This document shows positions 1-14,671 of a stretch of 14,671 nucleotides of DNA, piece by piece (the first letter of the stretch is position 1; every line of letters begins with the position of its first letter). This stretch comes from a virus. Lineage: Duplodnaviria > Heunggongvirae > Uroviricota > Caudoviricetes. The stretch is taken from IMG/VR virus record IMGVR_UViG_2654588181_000003; one strand, given 5' to 3'. A program made the position numbers and the translations under genes. The notes under the pieces were generated by a model. It was not told the DNA's origin and ran no database searches. It saw nothing but the letters and a program-made list of their open reading frames with translations.

Positions 1-324
1 TGGCGGCGTAAGAGGCCCCGGAACGTTATCGTTCACACGGACCGTGGAGGCCAGTACTGTTCAGCAGATTATCAGGCGCAACTGAAGCGGCATAATCTGC
101 GTGGAAGTATGAGCGCAAAAGGTTGCTGCTACGATAATGCCTGCGTGGAAAGCTTCTTTCATTCGCTGAAAGTGGAATGTATCCATGGAGAACACTTTAT
201 CAGCCGGGAAATAATGCGGGCAACGGTGTTTAATTATATCGAATGTGATTACAATCGGTGGCGGCGGCACAGTTGGTGTGGCGGCCTCAGTCCGGAACAA
301 TTTGAAAACAAGAACCTCGCTTAG
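1..324 (+). CDS. insF: IS3-family DDE transposase OrfB (InsF-like), C-terminal ~107 codons, 5'-truncated by the window edge
   Basis: Frame 1 is open from base 1: [25 protein letters not shown]...[24 protein letters not shown]...[16 protein letters not shown]. The HTDRGGQY and DNAxxESFFxxLK motifs are the second D and the E region of the IS3-family DDE triad; the ENKNLA C-terminus matches IS3 InsF as I remember it. Confidence 0.85.
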
Positions 325-354
325 GCCTGTGTCCATATTACGTGGGTAGGATCA
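1..354 (+). mobile_element. IS3 insertion sequence, 3' portion only (element continues left of the window); right terminal inverted repeat ends near 354
   Basis: Reverse complement of 315-354 reads TGATCCTACCCACGTAATATGGACACAGGCCTAAGCGAGG, which I recognise as the IS3 terminal inverted repeat. It lies directly after the transposase stop codon. The other end is not in the window, so target-site duplication cannot be assessed. Confidence 0.8.
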
Positions 355-1775
355 TTCTTGCCATTGGCGTAACTTCGTGAATTAGGATGGTAGCCCTATT
401 TTGCCTTAAAGTTCCGCTTGTTACGAGCTTATACAGCGATTAATTATTATCTGATTTTAGTGTTTTCGTTCAGCTCAGCAAGTGCAATGACTCATGGGGT
501 AAGTGCTTTGTAACAGGGTTGTTGATGTCAGTCGTTGGCCCTCAATGGAGTCACGGTCATAGGCATAATTGCTGTATAGCTGTTAATGTTTGTCTGGGTG
601 AATTTCTACTATTCGGACTAACACCAAGTGAGTTCCATACTACATAACTGTGAGAATTTTCTGTACCCTTCACTCTATCCTCTTCTTGCATATTTACAGG
701 AAGATAAAGCAAAAGATACAAAACTTTGTAATCAAAAAACTGTCTTAATGTACTTACATCACGTTTAGTTATTAAATTTTTTGTCATGGTGAAAATTTTT
801 ACTTGGTCATTAAAATTCATCGGGTGTTAATATTCTAAACGAATAGGATGTCAAGCTAAAATGATGTGTCAAGTTGTTTGTAAAGTGAGAGGTTTATTTT
901 TGGAAGAAATGCTTAAGAGAAGTATATATGATATTTGCCTGAATATAATTATTGATATGCAAGGTTGGCAGAGGTTTTCTTTCTTTTCTAACCGAAGGGA
1001 AGAAAAGCAAGGGGAACTCGAAGAAGCAAGCGCAGCGGCTTCGCAGAGTTAGCCCTTGCTTCTCTTATAATTGGCATTATTCATTCAAGAACAATAGGAT
1101 CTTCGCTTGTACAAGCGAAGCTATAATAAAAACAATCAATTAATTATTTTTAAAGTATTAAACAAGAACCTATTGACATTCATAAAATACAAGTTATTTA
1201 TAATGTATGCCATAAATAAAAAGTTTTATGTCATATGTATCCTGCACTATGTGCAGTTAATGTACCACTTGTCCCATAGATGGGAATATTGGAAAGGTTA
1301 CTTTGTTTTGAAGTAGCCTTTCGTCCTTCAATATTAACGATTACTTATTGCTATTACCAAGTCCAGTCGAATCGAAGAACATCTTTTATCTGAAACGACT
1401 CCTAATACCCGGTTAAAGCCACAATATCTCTCGCATACGTAGACCAAAGAAAAATTATGATATTAAATATGTGATTTTTTTTAGTGTTAAGTTGAATAAT
1501 TAAATACTGGAGAGTTTTCTGTGCACTACCAATTGCTGGTTCATCTGTTCTGCCGCTGATGTTTCTGACGAATCTCCCGGTGACACAGAACTGTCCCTCT
1601 CTACCAGCCTTTATTCGACTCAATGTCCGGCTGCTGATACGCAGTTATCCCTTCGTATCAATGACTTACACTTAAACGTAATGCTTTGGTTGCTGGCGTA
1701 TCTGACAGCATCTTCGGCGTGAAGGTCGTTGTGTAAGTATACTTCTTGGTTTATTTAGGCTATATAAAACCATGA

Positions 1776-2672
1776 CTATGACTTGCTGTTTTCAGTAAGA
1801 GTCTTATCATCCAAAGAATTTATTCTAGAAATTCTTTTTAACTCATTAAGATAATCAACCTCGTTTTCTAAGAACCAATGAAGAACTTTAGAATTGCCAA
1901 GTAATTTATTAATATATGACTGGATTATAACGAATTTCAACATATCTGAACCATACTCGGTTTGAAGCTTTTTCGTTTCTTCCGAAGTTGTTGCCATTTC
2001 TTGTTCCAGACGAAGTATGGTTTTTTTTATGTCCTTTTTATAGGGAGTGTTTTTCCCTTTATTTACTATCATCGATGCCGGTGTTGCATCCAAGATGCTC
2101 ATTGCAAATTTTTTACTATAATTATCAAAATTAATCATTGTACCGACTGCTTCAATTTGGCGAATTGGCTTCATTTTCCTCAAAACGTCAAATGTAGCCT
2201 TAGGTATAGGTTTATCAGAAAGTTTCGCAATTACACTTGAATCTATGCCGTTCATCACATTCGCTTTATCTTTTATGGCATCAACAGATATGCCCAAAGC
2301 AGCACTAAGTTTTTCAATTGATACTTTTGCCAGAGACTTAATTATCATTCTATGTTCTTCAACTACATTTATATGATTCACTTGTTTGTTAGGAGTGAAA
2401 GCATCATCTATGCTCGAAAGTATACATGGAGCTTTTTCTATACCTAAGTCTTTTAAAGCCTCAACCCTTAAATGGCCATCAAGTATCTTAGTGACATCTT
2501 TATCTTTGTCATAGAATACTATTATTGGTTCAATAATACCTAAGCTTTCGATAGAGGTAACTATTTGATGATATTTATGGCTTCGCTTTACGTTTTCTAA
2601 TAATTCCTTAGATGGAATTAACTTATTAGTTTCCAGGTAAATAAAATTATCGCCAAAACGTATCTGAATCAT
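1776..2672 (-). CDS. ParB-like (ParB/sulfiredoxin-fold) domain protein, 298 aa, distal gene of the three-gene operon
   Basis: ORF-track protein contains GIIEPIIVFYDKDKDVTKILDGHLRVEAL (ParB N-terminal box-like segment) and a helix-turn-helix-like stretch VSIEKLSAALGISVDAI. Start ATG overlaps the upstream stop (ATGA at 2669-2672). Visibly AT-rich coding sequence. Confidence 0.65.
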   Translation of the reverse strand: MIQIRFGDNFIYLETNKLIPSKELLENVKRSHKYHQIVTSIESLGIIEPIIVFYDKDKDVTKILDGHLRVEALKDLGIEKAPCILSSIDDAFTPNKQVNHINVVEEHRMIIKSLAKVSIEKLSAALGISVDAIKDKANVMNGIDSSVIAKLSDKPIPKATFDVLRKMKPIRQIEAVGTMINFDNYSKKFAMSILDATPASMIVNKGKNTPYKKDIKKTILRLEQEMATTSEETKKLQTEYGSDMLKFVIIQSYINKLLGNSKVLHWFLENEVDYLNELKRISRINSLDDKTLTENSKS

Positions 2673-3565
2673 TTTAATACCTCTTTGTTTACTGGGGTTA
2701 ATATCTGAGATGGTAGTTCTGAAAGATTCTCTTGTTCAAGTATATGTTGAAAGCTTTTATTCATCATTATGATGTTAAAAATCTCATTTACTATTAGTAG
2801 GTTGGTTTTTATGAATTTTGAGTTGTTATAAACAGATTTATGTTCAGCGATACTATTTTCATAAAGCTCAATCAACTCCTCTGCAGTCATCCTTTTTGAT
2901 GGTTTGTGATAATAAAATCCGGCTGCTTTTGCACCTTTATTCCCAACTGTTCTTTGATTTAGAATGTGTTTTATCTTTATAATGTCCCGACTTTTTATTA
3001 ATTTTTTATCATATGCTTCGGTAAGAATATCTTGTGCTTCCTCAGTTTCACATCTTGCAAATTGCACTGCGAGATACAGAGGCAAATTACCCCGTTCGAC
3101 TGCTGAGAGAAGTTTATGCTCTCCCTTATCAAGTAGCATATTAATACTGCTCACCCAGTTCGATGAATATCCAGTAATCTCACTTATTTCGGAGTCTGAA
3201 AGTCCTCTGATTTTCATGTCTTTAATCACCTGTAATAACTCATTAGAACGTGGTCTTCTCCTTGCAATGTTTTCAACTAAACTCATAACGTAAGCATCTT
3301 CTTCTGATACATCTCTTATAATTGCTGGAATAATAGTTTCACCTAATGCAACGAGAGCCTCTATTCTCCCTTGACCACAAATTAAAGCATATTTGAAATC
3401 GCCTTCATCAATAGCTCTTACGCTTATAGGCTTGCTTAATCCTCTTTTTTTTATGCTTTCCTTTATTTCTTCATGCACTACCTTATTTCTTGTTCGTGGG
3501 TTAAGAAATTTTATTTTTGCAATCTCAATTTGAATTATTGGGAATTCATTTTTTTCAGGCAGCAT
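2669..3565 (-). CDS. ParB/Spo0J-like N-terminal domain protein with helix-turn-helix, 298 aa, middle gene of the operon
   Basis: Motifs in the translation: IAKIKFLNPRTR, GLSKPISVRAIDEGDFKYALICGQGRIEAL, LVENIARRRP (ParB arginine-patch-like), and GLSDSEISEITGYSSNWVS (helix-turn-helix). SD-like GAGGG lies 6 nt upstream of the ATG at 3565. The start overlaps the recombinase 3' end by 11 nt. Confidence 0.7.
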   Translation of the reverse strand: MLPEKNEFPIIQIEIAKIKFLNPRTRNKVVHEEIKESIKKRGLSKPISVRAIDEGDFKYALICGQGRIEALVALGETIIPAIIRDVSEEDAYVMSLVENIARRRPRSNELLQVIKDMKIRGLSDSEISEITGYSSNWVSSINMLLDKGEHKLLSAVERGNLPLYLAVQFARCETEEAQDILTEAYDKKLIKSRDIIKIKHILNQRTVGNKGAKAAGFYYHKPSKRMTAEELIELYENSIAEHKSVYNNSKFIKTNLLIVNEIFNIIMMNKSFQHILEQENLSELPSQILTPVNKEVLK

Positions 3566-5111
3566 ATAGTTCCCTCACTTTCATGCGAGTAATAATTTGT
3601 AGAAGTTTATCAAGATTATCAAATCTATAGAGATCTAATCGAATGTTGTTTGTTTCCGTCATGCACATTTTATTATATTCGTTTTCAATCTTTGGTATGA
3701 TATAAAAATCAAGAGGTGAAATATTTTGTGAATTCATTCGTATAACAATTGTTATGTCTGCTTTCTGTGAGTTATCAAACCGGACTTTCCATCTAAGTTT
3801 ACCTGATTTCATATGTATGCATTTAGTAACAAGGACGGAAATTAAAAACTCATCATTGATGTAAAGCATTGGGGCATATTTATACTCGTCTATATGACAG
3901 TTACTTTTTAAAATTTCACCCTTAAAATCCTCAATTATCTCTGAGTAAAATGATCTTAGTGCTTCATTTATTTTGAGATAGCTGTAATCATGTTCTGGCT
4001 TATAACCAATCAAAGTATATGCTCTTAAAAGACCACCAAATCGGGTTCTATAAACAGAAGATGAAGGGCCTGTATCATCTTCATCAATGATAAAGCCTGA
4101 TAGTTTTCCATTAGATTCTAATTTTTGTTTTAGTTTTTCTAATAGATCTTCATTAGTCAAATGAATGGATCGGAGCTGAATTATTTCTTGAGCTTTATTG
4201 TATTTTTTCTTTGAAATAATAGGTTTATATGCCTTGTCACATCTAACCCATTCATGTTTGGGGTTTTTTACAAGCCTACTTTTTAATTTAGATGAGGTTT
4301 TGTTATATATGTTGTTTCCAATATATTTTTCATTTGTCAAAATTTGATGTATTTTTGCACGAGTCCATAATGTTCCATTTTCTGCAGGTATGTTCTGTTC
4401 ATTTAATCTCTCAGCAATAATGAATTCTGGGACGTTATTATCTATAAAGAGATCATATATTCTATTTACAATTTTTATTTCATTTTTTGGTCCCGGAATT
4501 AATATTACCCTATCTGTTTGAATACTCTTTCTTTTGCGGAAACTCAATATTTCTTTAGCTATGCCATTTTCGTCTACTAAAAGACGTCTCAGCCCATAAC
4601 CAGCCATACCGCCTTGATGATAACCAAGCTTTATTAAATTTACTTGCCCTATAAATACCTTTTCAGATAGATTCCTGCTGTGATATGCAGCACTAGATCT
4701 TTTTATATTCAGTATAACAGAGGACTCTAAAGGGAAATCTTTAGTGGGTATAGGTTCGGAACAATATATAAGATCTACACCATTTCTCTCAAATAGAAAG
4801 GAATAATATGCCGCTTCATCACTATTTTGAAAACGACCAAAACGGCTCACATCATAAAATAATACAGCCTGTATATCTATTTTCTTTTGTTCTACATCGC
4901 TAAGTAACTGCTGCAAAGAATGCCTGCCTACGATACTGACTCCGCTCTTACCTGCATCATCGTAGGTATAAGCGATTTCCATATTGTTCTTTTCAGCATA
5001 ATCTTTGATATATTCGGACTGATTATGTAAAGAATATTGCTGATGGTCGGTAGACATCCTCAAGTACTGCGCGACCCTAACTCTATGATTTTTTTCATTT
5101 TCGCTAGCCAT
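3555..5111 (-). CDS. Large serine recombinase (resolvase/invertase catalytic domain plus recombinase domain), 518 aa
   Basis: N-terminus RVAQYLRMSTDHQ carries the catalytic-serine motif (YxRxSTxxQ). DDAGKSGVS, LQQLL and DVSRFGR match the serine-recombinase catalytic core. The roughly 370-aa extension is typical of large serine recombinases (phiC31 Int / TnpX / Ccr class). GAGG lies 8 nt upstream of the ATG. Confidence 0.8.
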   Translation of the reverse strand: MASENEKNHRVRVAQYLRMSTDHQQYSLHNQSEYIKDYAEKNNMEIAYTYDDAGKSGVSIVGRHSLQQLLSDVEQKKIDIQAVLFYDVSRFGRFQNSDEAAYYSFLFERNGVDLIYCSEPIPTKDFPLESSVILNIKRSSAAYHSRNLSEKVFIGQVNLIKLGYHQGGMAGYGLRRLLVDENGIAKEILSFRKRKSIQTDRVILIPGPKNEIKIVNRIYDLFIDNNVPEFIIAERLNEQNIPAENGTLWTRAKIHQILTNEKYIGNNIYNKTSSKLKSRLVKNPKHEWVRCDKAYKPIISKKKYNKAQEIIQLRSIHLTNEDLLEKLKQKLESNGKLSGFIIDEDDTGPSSSVYRTRFGGLLRAYTLIGYKPEHDYSYLKINEALRSFYSEIIEDFKGEILKSNCHIDEYKYAPMLYINDEFLISVLVTKCIHMKSGKLRWKVRFDNSQKADITIVIRMNSQNISPLDFYIIPKIENEYNKMCMTETNNIRLDLYRFDNLDKLLQIITRMKVRELYAA

Positions 5112-5393: not shown

Positions 5394-6623
5394 TTATGCG
5401 GCAATAACTTTGCATTTTTGAGACGAAACATAGTCACTCCACCATTGCATGAGAACCACCCGTTCAGTGAGATACTCTGCACGATTGTAGGCTGCAATTA
5501 TTTCATCTTTCTTCGAGTGGGCAAGGGCGGCTTCTAAGACATCAGTCCTAAACTTGCCAGACTCCTCAGCAGCCGTTCTAGCAATGGATCGCATACCGTG
5601 AGCTACAAGCTCACCTCCGAAACCCATACGGATTATGGCCGCATTAGCTGTTTGTTCATGCATGTGATTGAGTGGAGCTTTGATACTGGGGAACACCCAC
5701 TCTCTATGCCCGCTGATGACTTTCATTAAATCCAAAACTCGCAAAGCTTCTTTGCTCAGTGGAACTTTGTGAGGCTTCTTCATTTTCATAAACTCCGCCG
5801 GGATGTTCCACATGCCAGTTTCAATATCAATATCTGACCATCTTGTGCGAACAGCTTCACCTGGGCGAACCCATGTGAGAAGTTGCCACTCAATCAGTAG
5901 CCTTGTTTCCAAACGGATAGAAGCATTGTTTAGAGCAACCAAGAAGCGAGGGAGTTCGGAAGGGGGTAATGCTGGCATATTCTGTTTTTTTGGCTTGCTG
6001 AACCGTTGCCCCAGGTTGTCTGCCGGGTTGAATTCTATGAGTTCTTCTGTTGCTGCATAGCGGAAAATTTCATTCAGGCGGGATATGATGCGGCGAAGTG
6101 TTTCAAGGACACCTCGTTTTTCTATGGGTTCTAAATGCTGTTTAAGCATTTTAGGGCGAATCTCCTTAATTGGGGTATCACCCAATGTGGAAAAGATATT
6201 TCTCTCTAGGCTTCGCCAGATGTCGTTAGCATGATCTTGGGAGATGCCTGACGTTTTGACTTTCTCATCAAGCCACTTCTTGGCTACTGCTTGAAATGTA
6301 TGTTCCGTGGCATCTTTCAGTGCATTGGCTTTTTGGTTGTTATGAACTTGGGGGTCTATACCATTTGTAAGCAACGACAAGTATTCATCACGTAAAGCTC
6401 GTGCCTTCGCAAGTGTAAGGTGAGGATAGGTTCCTAAGCTCACCTTAGTTCGCTTTTTGGTCACAGGCACTGCATATCTGAAATACCAATTTTTCTTCCC
6501 TCCCTTCGCCAGGGGAGCGATTCGCAACAGCAAACCATCGCCGTCAAAAAGGTTAACCTCTTTTTCGGCAGGTTTGGTGCTTTTGATTTCAGTGTCAGTG
6601 AGCTTCTTAGCGATTTTGGCCAT
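5394..6623 (-). CDS. P4-type tyrosine integrase (CP4-57 IntA-like), about 409 aa from the internal Met
   Basis: MAKIAKKLTDTEIKSTKPAEKEVNLFDGDGLLLRIAP...KNWYFRY is the characteristic P4-family integrase N-terminus. I take the start at 6623 (MAKIAKK, preceded by GAGGG 7 nt upstream) rather than the ORF-track start at 6704. It lies about 165 nt downstream of an ssrA 3'-end copy on the same strand. Confidence 0.85.
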   Translation of the reverse strand: MAKIAKKLTDTEIKSTKPAEKEVNLFDGDGLLLRIAPLAKGGKKNWYFRYAVPVTKKRTKVSLGTYPHLTLAKARALRDEYLSLLTNGIDPQVHNNQKANALKDATEHTFQAVAKKWLDEKVKTSGISQDHANDIWRSLERNIFSTLGDTPIKEIRPKMLKQHLEPIEKRGVLETLRRIISRLNEIFRYAATEELIEFNPADNLGQRFSKPKKQNMPALPPSELPRFLVALNNASIRLETRLLIEWQLLTWVRPGEAVRTRWSDIDIETGMWNIPAEFMKMKKPHKVPLSKEALRVLDLMKVISGHREWVFPSIKAPLNHMHEQTANAAIIRMGFGGELVAHGMRSIARTAAEESGKFRTDVLEAALAHSKKDEIIAAYNRAEYLTERVVLMQWWSDYVSSQKCKVIAA

Positions 6624-6721
6624 GTTTGGGACCCTCGATTTTAGGACCCATCTTCGTGGGTCCCATTCAGGGTGCCATAACTCGTAGTTCTCAGCAATTC
6701 TCACTAGACTACAATAGACGT

Positions 6722-6755
6722 AAAAAAGCCCGCAGAGCTTGTGCTGTGCGGGCTT
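6722..6755 (-). terminator. Rho-independent terminator on the minus strand, between the ssrA-end repeat and the integrase
   Basis: Minus-strand reading AAGCCCGCACAGCACAAGCTCTGCGGGCTTTTTT: a 7-bp GC-rich stem (GCCCGCA/TGCGGGC), a short loop and a U tract. Confidence 0.5.
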
Positions 6756-6789
6756 AGTAGACTTTACTGAACTTCAGTACATCAATATT

Positions 6790-6824
6790 TGGTGGAGCTG
6801 GCGGGAGTTGAACCCGTGTCCGAA
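6790..6824 (-). other. 35-nt copy of the tmRNA (ssrA) 3' end; att-site direct repeat, not a complete gene
   Basis: Minus strand reads TTCGGACACGGGTTCAACTCCCGCCAGCTCCACCA, matching the E. coli ssrA 3' terminus as I recall it with one mismatch. Similarity to ssrA stops immediately 5' of this segment (plus coordinates above 6824). Confidence 0.75.
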
Positions 6825-6899
6825 TATTTGCAATGCGTTGATTTATAACGAATAAAATTTAAAGTTGGTTCTTACGGCTCTTTTGCGGATATTTTACTA

Positions 6900-7718
6900 T
6901 CAATTCGTAGTCCTGCCATATTTACGTTTTTTCTTGCGGTTTGTTTCTGGTTTCTTCTCTCGGTTATTGTCTACTTTTTCATGTATATCCATATTGAACC
7001 AAGAAGCATGCGAAACCTCACTTAATGGAAATATGATACTGGTATCAACTCCATCAAGATCGTTGTAATCATTTGAAAACAGGACCCTTAGTGTGTCCTT
7101 GTCCCTGTAACCAGATATGATTGGGCTAATAGAAATTTCAAGGTTAGGGCCTTGTTTTTCGTTTGGCTCACTAATCATGTTAACTGTTCCGACATATACT
7201 TTGCGGCATTTCAGGCTTATCAGTACCGGTCTGTTTGTAGTCGCTGAATCAAAGAATAGCTGACCAAGTGAGCCATCAGACAACAGTTTTTCCAACTCAT
7301 TAAGCCTGATTAGTTGCTTTGCGAAATTGATAGAAATTGCATTATTGGATGCAGAACTAATAGTTTTTGCTGCCACAAACATACGAAATTTGCATATCTG
7401 CAACCAAATAAAAGCAACTCCACAAGTCGCCACTGATAGCAGGATGAGCCATGATGTTATCCTGTTTTCTTTAGGGTCTGCACTACCATCAATAAGATGT
7501 GATACCCATGTGACCAGTGTAAGGCTTGGTATAAAGTACTTGGTTGCATACGCCAGCACGACTGCAACAATGAACGAGTACACACCGTACGTGGCCACCT
7601 TCATATAGAGAAGCTGGCCGTCGTAACGGTGGAGTCGATAGAATAATTTGATGTTATGGGGCGATGTAACCAGTAAGGATCCACTTACTAAAAGTGGAAT
7701 GATCAGCAATGCAAACAT
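6900..7718 (-). CDS. Hypothetical integral membrane protein, 272 aa; three predicted N-terminal transmembrane helices, soluble C-terminal domain with a lysine/arginine-rich tail
   Basis: Hydrophobic segments FALLIIPLLVSGSLLV, YGVYSFIVAVVLAYATKYFI and ITSWLILLSVATCGVAFIWLQI; C-terminus NNREKKPETNRKKKRKYGRTTN. The ATG at 7718 is 3 nt after the upstream gene's stop codon (7722-7724). No recognisable family. Confidence 0.55.
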   Translation of the reverse strand: MFALLIIPLLVSGSLLVTSPHNIKLFYRLHRYDGQLLYMKVATYGVYSFIVAVVLAYATKYFIPSLTLVTWVSHLIDGSADPKENRITSWLILLSVATCGVAFIWLQICKFRMFVAAKTISSASNNAISINFAKQLIRLNELEKLLSDGSLGQLFFDSATTNRPVLISLKCRKVYVGTVNMISEPNEKQGPNLEISISPIISGYRDKDTLRVLFSNDYNDLDGVDTSIIFPLSEVSHASWFNMDIHEKVDNNREKKPETNRKKKRKYGRTTN

Positions 7719-7721
7719 TTG

Positions 7722-7970
7722 TTAGTCGTCATTGTCCATTGAGTTAGCTTTAGCGGCTGCAACAGCTTTTGCATCCTGCTCGACGAATTTTCTAGCTGCT
7801 TTCCTAAGCTGAGTGATTTTTTCTGGGTCAGTAGATGGGTCTACAATAACTGCACCACGCCCTACGACCTTGATGTTTTTAACACCAGATTTGTTCAAAC
7901 GATCGGCCATGGCTTGTCCGCCTTTGACCAAATCATTCAGCCCAAACATCTTCATGACTAGTTCTGACAT
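7722..7970 (-). CDS. Hypothetical small soluble protein, 82 aa, first gene of the two-gene operon
   Basis: A near-consensus SD (AGGAGG) lies 5 nt upstream of the ATG at 7970. The protein is hydrophilic and alanine/lysine-rich with an acidic C-terminus (SMDNDD). No recognisable motif. Confidence 0.55.
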   Translation of the reverse strand: MSELVMKMFGLNDLVKGGQAMADRLNKSGVKNIKVVGRGAVIVDPSTDPEKITQLRKAARKFVEQDAKAVAAAKANSMDNDD

Positions 7971-8265
7971 AAAGACCTCCTTTCAGTCCCCCCAATGTAT
8001 CCTTTTGAGGCATTTATTGCTCCCCGCAGAACGGGGCGCGGGATTTTACCATAATCTACGTACTGGCTCCAAGATTTCCCGCGTGTTCCTAGTACTAGGA
8101 CAGCTGCCTGAGTACCAAGTTCACCTATAACATATATACTTGGTTCGAATTTTTGCAAGGTAAAAAGTGCCTTATGTTTAAGTATGTATGATGTGGATAT
8201 GACGAACATAACCACATCACAAATAACTTTTTATCAGGTTTCAGTGGCTATTTGTTCGGGCAGCA

Positions 8266-8920
8266 TCAAGCCTGTTTTGTATCATTAGTATTTTTAGCGG
8301 TATGTCCGTCATATGCAGCAAGGTAACTGCCATAGTGACGAAATAGCATTTCTGGTCCCTTATGGCCCATCTGGCCTGCAAGCCAGAACAGGTTCGCACC
8401 ACGGCTGATATGGCTGGTGGCGAATGTATGCCTGGTCTGATATGGGTTACGGTACCGGATACCTGCTTTACGTAAGGTTGGTATCCACGCTTTTTTCCTT
8501 ATCGCATCGGCGCTGGCCCACGGTTTGTTTGTCTTTGGATCTTCAAAGACAGTAGCATCCTTCATGAATGTAAATGGCTTCTGATTTATCAGCGCCAACA
8601 TTGCCTCTTCTGTCAGTTCAACTTTACGAGTACCGGCTTTTGTCTTTGTTCCTTTGATAACACCGACAACACTTGCGCTCTGGACATGGGCAGTTTTTCC
8701 AACAAAGTCGATATCACGCCATCGAAGGGCACATAATTCAGAACTACGCAGGCCTGTATGTATAGCGAACCGGAACAGATTTTCCCATTGTTTGTTTCCG
8801 GCTGCTGCTAGTAATGCATCAACTTCTGCTGGTGATAGCGGATCAACCACGTAGCTGCTTTCTGCTTCTGACTTATCACTTTGGTAGCGCGAAGCAGTTA
8901 CCAACGATACGGGGTTAATT
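8266..8920 (-). pseudogene. Tyrosine integrase (phage/lambda-type) C-terminal catalytic-domain fragment; the N-terminal half is missing
   Basis: The translation ends with the catalytic region ...ELCALRWRDIDF...RKVELTEEAM...RHTFATSHISRGANLFWLAGQMGHKGPEMLFRHYGSY (R...HxxR...Y signature). The first ~40 residues of the ORF-track protein are just the antisense of the adjacent head gene, so only about 215 residues are integrase-derived. Confidence 0.7.
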
Positions 8921-8923
8921 TGA

Positions 8924-10255
8924 AGTACCCCAGCCTCCCGGACGCCAGTGCAGGCAGCAGCACCCGTGGTGGATGAAAACAGTATCCGTGCGCAGGTACT
9001 GGCAGAGCAAAAAGCGCGTGTAAACGGTATTAATGATCTGTTTGCCATGTTTGGCGGGCGTTATCAGACGCTGCAGGCTCAGTGTCTTGCCGATCCTGAA
9101 TGTTCGCTGGAGCAGGCCCGCGAAAAGCTGTTGAACGAGATGGGGCGCGAGTCCACGCCATCCAATAAAAATACCCCGGCTCATATTTATGCCGGTAACG
9201 GTAATTTTGTGGGGGACGGGATCCGCCAGGCGCTGATGGCGCGTGCCGGATTTGAAAAAACCGAACGTGATAATGTCTACAACGGGATGACCCTGCGTGA
9301 ATATGCCCGTATGTCACTGACTGAACGGGGTATTGGGGTTTCCAGTTATAACCCGATGCAGATGGTCGGTGCGGCGTTCACACACAGTACGTCTGACTTC
9401 GGTAATATTCTGCTGGATGTTGCGAACAAAGCCATTCTGCAGGGCTGGGAAGATGCCCCTGAAACCTATGAACAGTGGACGCGGAAAGGTCAGTTGTCTG
9501 ATTTTAAAATTGCCCATCGTGTGGGTATGGGGGGCTTCAGTGCTCTGCGTCAGGTGCGTGAAGGGGCGGAATATAAATACGTCACCACCGGAGATAAACA
9601 GGCCACTATTGCACTGGCGACCTATGGCGAGCTGTTCAGTATCACCCGTCAGGCCATTATCAATGATGATCTGAATATGCTGACCGATGTCCCGATGAAA
9701 CTGGGCCGTGCGGCGAAATCCACTATTGCCGATCTGGTTTATGCCATTCTGACGTCTAACCCGAAAATCTCCACAGATAATGTAAGTCTGTTCGATAAAG
9801 CAAAACATGCAAACGTACTGGAGAGCGCTGCAATGGACGTGGCATCGCTGGATAAAGCCCGCCAGTTGATGCGCGTTCAGAAAGAGGGGGAGCGTCATCT
9901 GAATATTCGTCCTGCGTTCGTACTGGTACCGACGGCGATGGAGTCTGTTGCTAACCAGGTCATTCGCTCCTCAAGTGTCAAGGGGGCTGACATTAACGCC
10001 GGTATTATTAACCCGGTGAAAGATTTTGCGACCGTTATTGCAGAGCCTCGTCTTGATGATAACAGCCAGACCACCTTCTACCTGGCTGCGTCAAAAGGCT
10101 CCGATACTATTGAAGTGGCTTATCTCAACGGTGTGGATACGCCATATATTGATCAGATGGAGGGCTTCAGTGTGGATGGCGTGACAACGAAAGTGCGTAT
10201 TGACGCCGGTGTCGCGCCAGTTGATCACCGCGGTCTGGTGAAATGTACGGCGTAA
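8924..10255 (+). pseudogene. Phage head morphogenesis protein fragment (major capsid or prohead protease/scaffold family), N-terminally truncated
   Basis: An in-frame stop at 8921-8923 precedes the open frame. The ORF track begins at a GTG (8948) with no RBS, and the frame runs directly into the antisense integrase fragment. Lambdoid head-gene order (large head protein, then a ~108-aa DUF2190-like decoration gene) supports the call. The exact family is assigned from memory only. Confidence 0.55.
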
Positions 10256-10341
10256 ACGTCGCAGACAACAACTCTGATGGCCCGTAAGGGCTTTTTTTGT
10301 ACCTGAAATCAGCCCCTGAACGGGGCTGTGCGGAGACAGTT

Positions 10342-10665
10342 ATGGCAAAGAATTTTGTAGAAGAAGGAAAAACGGTGGCGATTGTTGCCAGTGCAGCCAT
10401 CAGCAGCGGAGATCTGGTGCAGGTGGGTGATGTTTTTGCGGTGGCACTGACCGATATTCCACAGGGTGAAACAGGCGACGGCCTGACCGAAGGTGTGTTT
10501 ATGCTGCCTAAGCTGAAAACGGATGACATGAAAACGGGTAAGAAGGTTTATCTGAAGTCCGGAAAAGTTCAGCTGACTAACAGCGGCTCTGATCCGCTGG
10601 TCGGGGTTGTCTGGGCAGATGCCGGAACCAGTGCAGAAGAAGTGCCGGTAAAACTCAATGTCTGA
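10342..10665 (+). CDS. DUF2190-like phage head decoration/cement protein, 108 aa
   Basis: GGAGA lies 6 nt upstream of the ATG at 10342 (MAKNFVEEGK). The pattern GDLVQVGDVFAVALTDIPQGETGDGLTEGVFMLPK in a ~110-aa product following a head gene is typical of DUF2190 proteins. The ORF-track start at 10297 has no RBS. Confidence 0.55.
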   Translation: MAKNFVEEGKTVAIVASAAISSGDLVQVGDVFAVALTDIPQGETGDGLTEGVFMLPKLKTDDMKTGKKVYLKSGKVQLTNSGSDPLVGVVWADAGTSAEEVPVKLNV

Positions 10666-10733
10666 TCCCTTTTCCCGGCTGGCAGCGCGTATGGATGCGA
10701 TCACGGTCAGAAAGATGGGAAAGACAGCCTCGA

Positions 10734-11078
<345 letters not shown>

Positions 11079-11439
11079 TCATTGCAAGGGCTCACAACCA
11101 GTAGTGTTGAGAAAACCATCGGAGAAATGAGGCTAAGCCTTTGAATTTACATAGTACAAAAAAGATACTTTTCCTCATAATGTGAGCTAATTTTATGTTT
11201 CGTTTGATGATTGGACCGGTCTCGAAAACCGTAGACACATAGTATGCGTTAATTTATGAACAAACTACTTGTCTGCTGTTTTTCTGTCATTAGTCGTATA
11301 TAGAATGATTCTCTATGCCTAACAAAGCATCACCAGTGCTAGATTACGTTGTAGTCACTGTTTAAATATCCAGATAAAACATTTCCTTCTGGGTTGAATG
11401 AGTGATAAAGTTTCACCCATTAGACCCCTTGGAGGAATT

Positions 11440-12873
11440 ATGTCTGAATTTGAAGTGTTGGCACAGCATCTGCTGAAGGAAGCCGAGGCGGAAGAAAAGC
11501 TGCGACAGGAAAATGATAAAAAGCTTATCGAGAAAGTGCTGGAAATCTATGATCAGAAGTATGTGGCTGAATTACTGAGAAAAGTCGGAAAAAATGAGTG
11601 GAGCCGTGAAACCATTAACCGCTGGATTAATGGCAAGTGTTTACCAAAATCGTTGACTTCAGTAGAAGAGTCTCTTCTGCGTAAGATGCTACCAGAACCA
11701 CCTGCAAACCATCCGGAATATGCTTTCCGCTTCATTGACTTATTTGCTGGAATTGGAGGGATACGGAAAGGTTTTGAGGCCATTGGAGGCCAGTGTGTTT
11801 TTACCAGTGAATGGAATAAAGATGCTGTGCGTACATACAAGGCCAACTGGTTTAACGATGAACAGGTGCATAAATTCAATCTCGATATTCGGGAAGTCAC
11901 GCTGAGTGATAAAACCGATGTATTGGAAACGGATGCTTATGCATATATTGATGAGCATGTGCCGGATCATGATGTGCTTCTTGCGGGGTTCCCGTGCCAG
12001 CCATTTAGCCTTGCTGGTGTTAGTAAGAAAAACTCACTTGGTCGTGCGCATGGTTTTGAATGTGAAGCACAAGGAACACTTTTTTTTGACGTGGCACGTA
12101 TTATACGAGCAAAAAAACCGGCAATTTTTGTGCTGGAAAATGTCAAAAATCTGAAGAGCCATGATAAGGGTAAAACTTTCAAAGTCATTATGGAGACCCT
12201 TGACGAGCTGGGCTACGAAGTTGCCGATGCTGCAGAAATGGGAAAAAACGATCCAAAGATTATCGATGGGAAGCATTTTTTGCCTCAGCATCGTGAACGT
12301 ATTGTTCTGGTCGGATTTAGACGAGATCTGAATATTCACAAGGGGTTTACCTTGCGTGATATCAGTCGTTTTTATCCGGAACACCGCCCATCATTTGGTG
12401 AATTGCTGGAGCCTGTAGTCGACAGTAAATATATACTTACGCCAAAACTATGGGAGTACCTTTATAACTACGCCAAAAAGCATGCAGCCAAGGGGAATGG
12501 TTTTGGCTTTGGGTTGGTCAATCCTGAGAATAAGGAAAGCATTGCACGCACACTTTCTGCCAGATATCACAAAGACGGATCAGAAATTCTTATTGATCGT
12601 GGTTGGGATATGGCAACGGGAGAGGCTGACTTTATGAATGAGAGTAATCAGGCTCGTCGACCACGCAGGCTGACTCCCCGAGAGTGCGCACGCCTTATGG
12701 GATTTGAAAAACCTGGAGGGAAACCATTCCGTATTCCGGTTTCAGATACTCAGTCATATCGGCAGTTCGGTAACTCAGTTGTGGTGCCAGTATTTGAAGC
12801 TGTTGCCAGACTTCTGGAACCCTATATCCTCAAAGCTGTTTCTGCTGATGCTGGTAAGACTGGGCAGCCTTGA
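11440..12873 (+). CDS. ecoRIIM: DNA cytosine-5 methyltransferase, Dcm / M.EcoRII family (predicted CCWGG specificity), 477 aa
   Basis: GGAGG lies 3 nt upstream of the ATG at 11440 (MSEFEVLAQ...). The protein carries [17 protein letters not shown] (motif I, AdoMet binding), [11 protein letters not shown] (motif IV, catalytic Cys), FVLENVKNL (motif VI) and [10 protein letters not shown] (motif X). It is closely similar along its length to E. coli Dcm/M.EcoRII as recalled. Confidence 0.9.
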
Positions 12874-12879
12874 GAACAT

Positions 12880-12902
12880 CTCCCGGCCTTTTAAGCCGGG
12901 AG
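12880..12902. terminator. Perfect 8-bp stem hairpin between the convergent methyltransferase and endonuclease genes (likely bidirectional terminator/insulator)
   Basis: CTCCCGGC-cttttaa-GCCGGGAG sits in the 34-bp gap between stop codons at 12871-12873 (plus strand) and 12908-12910 (minus strand). There is no long U tract on either side, so the terminator role is tentative. Confidence 0.45.
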
Positions 12903-12907
12903 TCAGC

Positions 12908-14116
12908 CTATGATAGTTCAGCGTAAAGCTCTATCAGCTCAGTAATGAATGCTCCGAGCGTTATTAATTCTTCTCTAACTGCTTCTGGGTATTTTTTATG
13001 TAAAGTTGATGGTACAACGAGTCTGACACCCGCATCTTTCATTTCTCGGTATTGTGCTGAAGAAACACCTTCTTGCAGTGTAAATAAATGTACCTGATGG
13101 ATTTTATCTGCTTCATTCAGTATCTGACGCCAGCGATCTTTGCAGGTGGTCTTTACTGCCAGCATACGTAAGTTTTCTACAGGAAATTCAACGTTATGAT
13201 ATGCCTCTGCTGAAGGAAACAGGAAATCTGGTTTTTTATTACCTTCAGTAACTGCCTGAGTGGAGAAATGCCGTAGTCCGTGCTCGATAAAAAGCTTCTC
13301 TAGGTGAAGTTCAAGTGATTTGCCTGCCCTTGATTTACGTCGATTACTGACAGAGTTGGCTAATGCAATAAACTCATCTACAGAATCGAATCCTTTCTTA
13401 ATAATATCAATAACATGTAATTCCTCGACGAGTAGAAAAATATCATACTCGACACGCCGACGGTCAATCAGTTGCTCATCTGGATCCTTGGAGTTTTTAG
13501 CATAATGGCCAGCAGCATATTGAATAATTTCGTTTCCAGAAGGAAAACGCTTCTTCCAGTCTTCAGGAATAACATATTTATGATTTACTGGAGTTTGCTG
13601 AAGAGACAATCCGCCCAAAATTTGTCCGGCAGGGCCGGAAATTAGGGTTCCAGGTATGATTTCGCCAATAGCAGACTCGATGATATCCTCTTCATCGGGA
13701 TTGACGCAGACCCATATATCTACCTCGGAACAGTCAGTGTTCTGTTCGTTTAACCTGAAAGCAAGAATTGTGAGGGCTCCTGTATTTTCAGGGTTCTGTA
13801 ATGGACTTCCTCTCCCCCAGCGCGTAATTCTTTTTTCGTTTCGGGTCTTACCAAAATAACGGTTGTTGTAATAAATTGCGCGTGCTTGGGTATCAGGGCA
13901 ATCATGGGATGATACATGCGCAGTAAGGAAGACTGAAGGGTTCAGTTCGCGAGTATGATTGATAGATGGAAAAAGCTTTTCAACGATATTTGAGGGGATA
14001 TAAAGTCCGACCTGATGGCCACCTGTTGCGCCTGTGTCGTTTGCAGAAAGGCGTTTGATGTAGATAAAGTAATTCCCGCTTGCGATATCAAGCAGCCAGT
14101 TATGAAAAACCGACAT
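12908..14116 (-). CDS. ecoRIIR: EcoRII-like type IIE restriction endonuclease (CCWGG), 402 aa
   Basis: The translation from the second Met (MSVFHNWLLDIASGNYFIYIKRLSANDTGATGGHQVGLYIPS...) matches EcoRII as I remember it nearly end to end, including the N-terminal effector-binding domain and the C-terminal catalytic domain. AGGGA lies 5 nt upstream of the ATG at 14116. Convergent with the methyltransferase, as in the EcoRII system. Confidence 0.9.
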   Translation of the reverse strand: MSVFHNWLLDIASGNYFIYIKRLSANDTGATGGHQVGLYIPSNIVEKLFPSINHTRELNPSVFLTAHVSSHDCPDTQARAIYYNNRYFGKTRNEKRITRWGRGSPLQNPENTGALTILAFRLNEQNTDCSEVDIWVCVNPDEEDIIESAIGEIIPGTLISGPAGQILGGLSLQQTPVNHKYVIPEDWKKRFPSGNEIIQYAAGHYAKNSKDPDEQLIDRRRVEYDIFLLVEELHVIDIIKKGFDSVDEFIALANSVSNRRKSRAGKSLELHLEKLFIEHGLRHFSTQAVTEGNKKPDFLFPSAEAYHNVEFPVENLRMLAVKTTCKDRWRQILNEADKIHQVHLFTLQEGVSSAQYREMKDAGVRLVVPSTLHKKYPEAVREELITLGAFITELIELYAELS

Positions 14117-14193
14117 ATACATCCCTTTGTTAACATACAGTCAGGGTTAACATTTTTCCATAGTTATAGATAAGCGGCTAGGAACTTAAGGGA

Positions 14194-14227
14194 AAAACAA
14201 AAAGCCCGCATAAGCGGGCTTTTGTGT
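14194..14227. terminator. Bidirectional rho-independent terminator
   Basis: AAAAACAAAA-AGCCCGC-ataa-GCGGGCT-TTTTG: a 7-bp GC stem with a 4-nt loop, an A tract upstream and a T tract downstream, so it reads as a terminator on either strand. It sits about 80 bp upstream of the endonuclease start. Confidence 0.6.
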
Positions 14228-14533
14228 CACTCGAGAGCCGCGGCTCCTTTGCGTATCCTTTTTTGTCTCCTCACCGTCTGGTCGGTGTCCTGCTGAGACT
14301 GCTAACTTCCTGTTTTTGTTGGTGTTGTCCTTACACCGTCCAATCATGATTGGTGGGCTGGCGGAGTTTGAATAAATATTATATTGCTTTGATTTTTAAC
14401 GATTTTGTTTAATTCAGTTTTTGTGCGTATACCTAATCGTATACCAATGGCTGTAAGTTAATGTGAAATGAAAGCGCATTTTTACTTGGATTGATGCTAT
14501 ATCGTACAGGAAAAAAATTTTTTTTCGAAAGAA

Positions 14534-14626
14534 CTGTTCACACTGTTCACCCTTTGATTTTCTCCTTTTATTTCATAGTGATAGGTGGTGAATAATGGGT
14601 GAAGGGTGAACATTCGATTCTTCACC
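14534..14626. repeat. Cluster of six GTTCAC/GGTGAA hexamer repeats in both orientations; candidate operator or iteron array
   Basis: GTTCAC at 14536-14541 and 14545-14550 (tandem CTGTTCAC units); GGTGAA at 14587-14592, 14598-14603 and 14605-14610; TTCACC at 14621-14626. The arrays flank an AT-rich core; a 6-bp-stem palindrome CCGGCAttcTGCCGG follows at 14628-14642. Confidence 0.4.
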
Positions 14627-14671
14627 TCCGGCATTCTGCCGGTGTGACTCATACCGGTGATTAATCCCCCG

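Follow-up and report, generated by a model that had tools for sequence, protein, structure and literature searches.

Why does an intact P4-type integrase gene stand next to a short copy of the 3'-end of the tmRNA gene ssrA rather than next to the gene itself? The question is raised by positions 6722–6824 of a 14,671-nt stretch of viral DNA (IMG/VR record IMGVR_UViG_2654588181_000003, Caudoviricetes). Further in this study the whole stretch is referred to as the window. The original prediction, made from the sequence alone, held that islands are arranged in tandem at the tmRNA gene, so that other DNA lies between the real ssrA and the island carrying the integrase. In our analysis, the region 6722–6824 is very probably a seam inside an array of integrative elements that stand in tandem at this gene.

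Read as its reverse complement, the plus-strand sequence of 6790–6824, TGGTGGAGCTGGCGGGAGTTGAACCCGTGTCCGAA, coincides with the final 35 nt of E. coli ssrA at 34 of 35 bases. It comprises a perfect 27-nt block (6790–6816), the mismatch at position 6817, where the minus strand has A and ssrA has G, and seven more matching bases (6818–6824); at 6825 the similarity to ssrA ends. Alignment with the annotated ssrA genes of three complete E. coli genomes placed the 35-mer at the extreme end of the gene, its last 35 nt. A pattern search allowing up to three mismatches found this site alone in the window, and 200 dinucleotide-preserving shuffles gave no match at all. A permissive Rfam search yielded a 5'-truncated tmRNA match ending at 6790 (E = 6.7e-6, 19 bits vs the gathering score of 47). 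Neither ARAGORN nor Rfam at gathering thresholds found a tmRNA gene in the window, hence no intact ssrA overlaps the site there; a full-length tmRNA structure with a tag reading frame is absent from the window, which holds just the 19-bit 3' fragment. The search and the ssrA alignments agree with the original description of the copy, that is, 35 nt of the tmRNA 3' terminus with a single mismatch and then no similarity. The reported order of features was also reproduced: the copy, the terminator and the P4-type integrase follow each other on the minus strand. The features of the window are listed in Table 1.

Table 1. Features of the window, ordered by position.
Feature	Position	Strand	Remarks
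Two ParB/RepB-like proteins (island C cargo)	2669–3565 and 1776–2672	−	genes overlap
Large serine recombinase (island C cargo)	3555–5111	−	
Intact P4-type tyrosine integrase, 409 aa	5394–6623	−	100% identical to WP_001062342.1 (E. coli GPEC87-32-644)
Intrinsic terminator	6720–6755	−	hairpin 6726–6755 and U tract
Displaced ssrA 3' copy	6790–6824	−	attR (distal att) of prophage remnant B; also bounds island C proximally
Non-coding P arm of prophage B beside the att core	6825–6899	−	identical in TA8571 and MB06171
272-aa protein, phrog_3630	6900–7718	−	homologue among phiES15 gp01/gp02
82-aa protein, phrog_35771	7722–7970	−	homologue among phiES15 gp01/gp02
Prophage B tyrosine integrase, C-terminal catalytic part	8266–8932	−	N-terminal part lost by internal deletion
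Head-gene fragment: capsid part of ClpP-capsid fusion and cement/DUF2190 protein	8931–10736	+	100% identical to the MB06171 prophage interior
Truncated GIY-YIG gene	10734–11033	−	ssrA-proximal end of prophage B
m5C methyltransferase	11398–12873	+	ssrA-proximal end of prophage B
Type II restriction endonuclease	12908–14122	−	ssrA-proximal end of prophage B
Terminator-like hairpin and T run	about 14201–14226		ssrA-proximal end of prophage B; read by eye
Degenerate ssrA 3' copy, TTCAAACTCCGCCAGCCCACCA	14351–14372	−	three indels relative to ssrA; junction of satellite A and prophage B
Distal end of P4-like satellite (element A)	14373–14671	−	downstream of the primase gene as in AR_0013

The integrase at 5394–6623 belongs to what we call island C. 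Its Arm-DNA-bind_3, Phage_int_M and Phage_integrase domains scored 81, 85 and 72 bits, respectively, each above the Pfam cut-off of 27, which is the three-domain architecture of P4-type integrases; the protein also passed the cut-off of NCBIfam PRK09692 (NF007246; 444.6 vs 434). In E. coli GPEC87-32-644 the gene order is smpB, intact ssrA, the same terminator, the same integrase, the serine recombinase and the two ParB/RepB-like genes, and the DNA from the ssrA 3'-end into the integrase is identical to window positions 6816–6600. Since the protein and the DNA upstream of it are identical beside the intact gene in this strain, the usual place of island C is next to intact ssrA, and the original assumption about where such an integrase normally sits is thus borne out. 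The serine recombinase and the two ParB/RepB-like genes (1776–5111) form a trio that is conserved beside the integrase in several genomes. PADLOC produced no defence-system match for this trio, its one weak similarity, ParB-N-like, being that between the second ParB gene and a methyltransferase model. Island C has no recognisable transfer genes. Its distal att copy was not found in the window, a search at up to four errors yielding no third ssrA copy. Window positions 1–1776 contain short ORFs only, and the comparison genomes have IS3-family fragments annotated there; the distal part of the island appears to be disrupted by IS elements.

The DNA on the other side of the copy can be read from two comparison genomes. 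In TA8571 the junction is 100% identical to window 6640–7300. To the right of it TA8571 carries the 272-aa and 82-aa proteins (WP_000457798.1 and WP_001293201.1, respectively), an intact 391-aa tyrosine integrase and a complete lambdoid prophage; the intact ssrA, followed by smpB, is located 47.6 kb from the junction and has the same orientation as the displaced copy. In MB06171 a prophage of the same type lies directly at the intact ssrA. The endonuclease, methyltransferase and GIY-YIG genes form the ssrA-proximal end of this prophage, and its distal end, with the 272-aa/82-aa pair and the integrase, abuts a different integrase island. Window positions 10735–14350 end in the arm that abuts the intact ssrA in MB06171. 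Relative to this genome, about 21.5 kb were lost at the deletion junction 8931/8932, which removed the N-terminal part of the integrase, and about 16.9 kb at 10735/10736, which truncated the GIY-YIG gene. The flanking matches overlap by 2 nt at each of the two deletion junctions. Since the pieces of the region 6825–14350 map to the MB06171 prophage, the region, judged by this mapping, is a 7.5-kb deletion remnant of an approximately 46-kb phiES15-like lambdoid prophage (prophage remnant B). The membrane operon and the restriction-modification system, which had been listed as separate cargoes of the inserted DNA, do belong to the same inserted DNA and are the two ends of one decayed prophage type. 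The ORF at 12908–14122 was also considered as a second integrase, as it follows a degenerate att copy and a terminator; this assignment was rejected, the product being a type II restriction endonuclease.

Cronobacter phage phiES15 (NC_018454) is an inducible temperate phage obtained by UV induction. Its annotated attP (positions 1–26) coincides with the last 26 nt of ssrA and is followed by gp01 and gp02, which are homologues of the 272-aa/82-aa pair (75% DNA identity), and by integrase and excisionase genes; this integrase and the intact one of prophage B in TA8571 share 67% identity. The same integration module, i.e. an att core formed by the last 26–27 nt of ssrA, homologues of gp01/gp02 and an integrase, is found in the window, with the integrase truncated at 8932. 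Prophage B differs from phiES15 in the morphogenesis genes and the host; in the window it retains only a truncated integrase, the excisionase and most of the phage having been lost by deletion. Searches of Pfam, PADLOC and NCBIfam with the 272-aa and 82-aa proteins found nothing, and PHROGs gave only families of unknown function. The pair occupies the slot between att and the integrase in the window (6900–7970, minus strand), TA8571, MB06171 and phiES15. Alternative contents of this slot are DarTG in strain H2 and an AAA ATPase with a Dam methylase in E. coli 042 (loci L001, 17967–19283, and L007, 25726–28438). The 272-aa/82-aa pair could be a defence or exclusion module.

The second ssrA copy of the window, at 14351–14372, is degenerate. 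To the left of it the DNA is identical to the sequence following intact ssrA in MB06171, and to the right of it positions 14373–14671 match AR_0013 at approximately 99%. The order in AR_0013 is intact ssrA, a P4-like element (integrase, helicase, psu, delta/ogr, icd-like and primase-helicase genes), the same degenerate copy and the same restriction-modification end. The end of element A thus matches an element with the gene set of P4-like satellites. Phage P4 integrates at a tRNA-Leu gene, whereas the site of element A is ssrA, of which it has left a degenerate displaced copy. At least three elements stand in tandem, because this second copy separates remnant B from satellite A. The head of the array is extrapolated from AR_0013, as the intact ssrA and the integrase of element A are located outside the window, the latter being seen in AR_0013. 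By the same comparison, approximately 11 kb would separate the right end of the window from the intact ssrA.

Both exact window copies of the octamer TGTTCACC, as well as 5 of its 16 one-mismatch matches, lie within 14535–14626, where TGTTCACC/GGTGAACA repeats, the exact copies along with three near copies, form a cluster. The octamer is the iteron of the P4 replication origin; the cluster resembles the ori/crr iterons of P4 and fits the end of a P4-like satellite. Displaced copies from several unrelated junctions, namely in the window (14351–14372), in AR_0013 and at the distal att of MB06171, lack the same T (CAGC-CCACCA vs CAGCTCCACCA), and in the displaced copy of Salmonella enterica subsp. 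diarizonae two bases are missing at this place; the loci concerned outside the window are L004 (18613–18634), L006 (14403–14424) and L022 (about 6400–6420). As far as the aligned copies tell, a simple single-crossover history does not explain the recurrent missing T, which may reflect a class of elements crossing over at the extreme 3'-end or else recurrent decay.

We propose that the array, read on the minus strand from right to left, would consist of the end of satellite A (14671–14373), the degenerate copy (14372–14351), prophage remnant B (14350–6825), the 35-nt copy (6824–6790) and island C with its terminator and intact P4-type integrase. Integration at the 3'-end of a gene rebuilds the gene at one end of the element and leaves a displaced fragment at the other (PMC4383910, PMC7192596), and either of the restored cores may then receive a second element (PMC7192596). 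In the same way each tyrosine integrase here would recombine the ssrA 3'-end copy borne by its element with the chromosomal one. The functional ssrA would be rebuilt at the head of the array, a short 3' fragment would be left at the far end of each element, and further elements could enter either restored core, giving a tandem array. Both ssrA copies of the window, 6790–6824 and 14351–14372, are on the minus strand, having the common orientation that Islander takes as the sign of displaced fragments (PMC4383910). Within the window island C has an intact integrase, prophage remnant B has a truncated integrase and the fragment 6790–6824, and element A has the fragment 14351–14372. Homologous arrays in TA8571, MB06171 and AR_0013 are headed by intact ssrA. 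The exact combination of elements was observed in none of the 5,426 complete E. coli genomes, and none of them covers at least 80% of the window. The comparison with GPEC87-32-644 and TA8571 supports the original claim of tandem islands with other DNA between the real ssrA and the integrase island; what did not stand is the view of all DNA to the right of 6825 as one element, as this DNA consists of three parts.

The 35-mer itself would be composite. Its part on the 5' side of the crossover (in the ssrA orientation), including A at 6817, would come from the arm of prophage B. The part on the 3' side, along with the terminator and the integrase leader, would be the arm of island C, the one that completes intact ssrA in other strains. 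The nucleotide at the position corresponding to 6817 varies with the prophage arm. A accompanies the B arm bearing the 272-aa gene in the window, in TA8571 and in the distal att of MB06171, the last being located beside an unrelated island; at its opposite end this MB06171 prophage adjoins an intact ssrA, which has G. The same island C is joined to three prophage arms, with A, T or G at the mismatch position: T is found in E. coli 042 (AAA ATPase and Dam cargo), and G in strain H2 (DarTG cargo), which has a different upstream arm. The 27-nt block CGGGTTCAACTCCCGCCAGCTCCACCA is common to all variants, and the annotated attP of phiES15 equals its last 26 nt. On these alignments, the G-to-A mismatch is a polymorphism of the prophage-derived arm and the 5' limit of the identity block, and the seven further matching bases (6818–6824) are residual similarity in the same arm. 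Since the mismatch bounds the perfect 27-nt core, the strand exchange would have occurred 3' of it. The suggestion that the mismatch marks the crossover region is thus correct in that the mismatch bounds the identity block, and has to be amended in that the crossover is placed 3' of this position and not at it. A displaced copy with the same G-to-A change (TTCGGACACGGG) and a different upstream arm was observed in Superficieibacter electus (L018, about 1540–1610), so the A-bearing att arm is not limited to E. coli.

A rho-independent terminator, that is, a G+C-rich hairpin followed by a U tract, is predicted from the sequence at 6720–6755. The 121-nt stretch 6710–6830 that includes it folds at −35.5 kcal/mol (z = −3.4), and no shuffle folds as well. 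Where island C borders an intact ssrA in comparison genomes, this terminator sequence is found 34 nt past the gene, at the place of the ssrA terminator. Going upstream on the same strand of the window, the first gene met is that of the 272-aa protein, whose end is at 6900; a scan from its stop codon to the hairpin 6726–6755 found no terminator-like site between them. Probably transcripts of the 272-aa gene, or of the prophage cargo pair, now end at this hairpin. The Rfam model of IsrM (RF02763) matches positions 6722–6777 (minus strand), i.e. the terminator module of island C, almost perfectly over its last 55 nt. The score is 55.1 bits vs the gathering score of 376, only the terminator end being aligned and the body of the model unmatched. 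Membership in the IsrM family was therefore rejected: the Salmonella sRNA and the window have in common just the terminator and 22 nt before it. In LT2 IsrM is located between STM2762 and STM2763, approximately 66 kb from smpB; no IsrM match was found in the S. enterica subsp. diarizonae locus, the one Salmonella locus searched. The shared end suggests an island-borne ssrA terminator as the 3' part of IsrM, and possibly IsrM itself is seated at such an ssrA seam.

Within the tandem array, the order in which prophage B and island C arrived is not readable from the junction sequence alone. Had B resided at ssrA first and C later integrated into its displaced 3' copy, the same succession of B arm, core and C arm would have resulted; the 27-nt junction core is perfect, and entry of a second element at either restored core is allowed (PMC7192596). 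Hence the separation of ssrA from the island, as originally stated, holds, whereas the sequence of events stated with it, insertion between the gene and the island, is not fixed by the junction, as C could equally have entered the displaced copy of B. Still, we consider C arriving after B the less likely order, and tend to the view that B arrived after C, entering the intact gene beside the resident island. This is favoured because island C beside intact ssrA is widespread, being found there in many genomes, and because one and the same C arm is joined to three B arms, which is explained most simply if mobile B-type phages repeatedly landed beside resident C. Moreover, B-type phages are mobile, phiES15 being inducible, whereas island C lacks recognisable transfer genes and is disrupted by IS elements on its far side.

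Other explanations do without an att site or assign the seam a function. The 35-mer could be a stump, i.e. what a deletion or rearrangement left of a chromosomal ssrA, given that only the 3'-end is present and the window has no intact tmRNA gene. However, in TA8571 and MB06171 what lies 5' of the 35-mer is prophage B, arm and cargo without interruption, an intact ssrA exists elsewhere in the same array, and the free phage phiES15 has the same core as annotated attP beside the same genes; a stump is thus hardly credible. Chance similarity to ssrA is discarded altogether by 34 coinciding bases of 35, by the shuffles, none of which matched at up to three mismatches, and by flanks identical to known ssrA-adjacent DNA. 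The fragment and terminator might instead have been co-opted as a functional RNA end, either of an sRNA or as the 3' UTR of the cargo pair, by analogy with IsrM. The near identity of 6722–6777 to the end of the IsrM model, the location of IsrM in LT2, and the stop codon of the 272-aa gene 75 nt upstream on the same strand, with no terminator-like site before the hairpin, point in this direction. Against it stand the low IsrM score with the unmatched model body and the lack of an IsrM match in the S. enterica subsp. diarizonae locus; besides, the module is fully accounted for as an ordinary ssrA terminator carried by an island. We regard co-option as improbable, and its specific version, recruitment of the fragment and terminator as the 3'-end of the transcript of the cargo pair (7970–6900) as a counterpart of IsrM, as slightly more improbable still. 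If it were true, the 3'-end of the RNA would consist of a T-arm and acceptor strand like those of tmRNA and then a stable hairpin; such an RNA might function as an sRNA or have SmpB or tmRNA-processing factors as partners.

Separation of such integrases from the tmRNA gene, our preferred reading being a tandem array, was also surveyed beyond the window. The 34-nt terminator was found in 16 species-representative Enterobacterales genomes. In all 16 it is followed by an integrase match, which is full-length or cut only by the sequence end in 14 and a fragment in loci L022 and L023. An intact tmRNA gene ending 34 nt before the terminator precedes it in 11 loci, and the 3' fragment alone in three (S. 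electus, Photorhabdus heterorhabditis and S. enterica subsp. diarizonae); the remaining two are cut by the contig end before the terminator. For E. coli, 60 evenly spaced records were sampled from 4,745 matching the junction query. At least 170 nt of the integrase-proximal module were matched by 16 of the 60; ssrA was annotated under the match in 11 of these and not in the other 5, hence the fragment-only state is common. Two loci come from metagenome-assembled genomes labelled Clostridiaceae (L011) and Sphingobacterium (L023). Both are short contigs with the enterobacterial ssrA 3'-end, the terminator and an integrase homologue (91% identity over the full length in L011; a partial match at 78% in L023), and their taxon labels are probably due to mis-binning.

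A related arrangement is that of the cryptic prophage CP4-57 of E. coli K-12, in which ssrA is followed by intA. Like island C, it has a P4-type integrase, which lies approximately 200 nt downstream of ssrA, and the DNA between the two contains a related terminator hairpin (AGCCCGCA..GC.CAAGC.CTGCGGGCTTTTTT). Island C has a different integrase allele and cargo (the serine recombinase and two ParB-like genes), and is displaced from the gene. MB06171 seems to carry a CP4-57-like arm with a related terminator.

Tandem arrays of elements at the tmRNA gene have been described (PMC7192596, PMC4383910), and PMC7192596 cites Williams 2003, 'Traffic at the tmRNA gene', for them. As in those arrays, the elements here follow each other head to tail downstream of ssrA, bounded within the window by 3' fragments in the same orientation, and an integrase gene adjoins a fragment (Islander/TIGER databases, PMC4383910). 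There is no difference in kind; the array of the window has one decayed member, prophage remnant B, and its head is outside the window. The arrangement is thus real but common and already described, with nothing new in kind.

The value of the finding is, in the first place, that of annotation: it sets exact boundaries of three mobile elements in the window, one of them a dead prophage remnant. With its perfect 27-nt core and the intact integrase of island C, the seam may still be a substrate for integration or excision. New biology is more likely to come from the variable cargo slot between att and the integrase than from the att copy. As for the question posed by this locus, a P4-type integrase without a tmRNA gene is no anomaly, being very probably the outcome of successive insertions at one gene.
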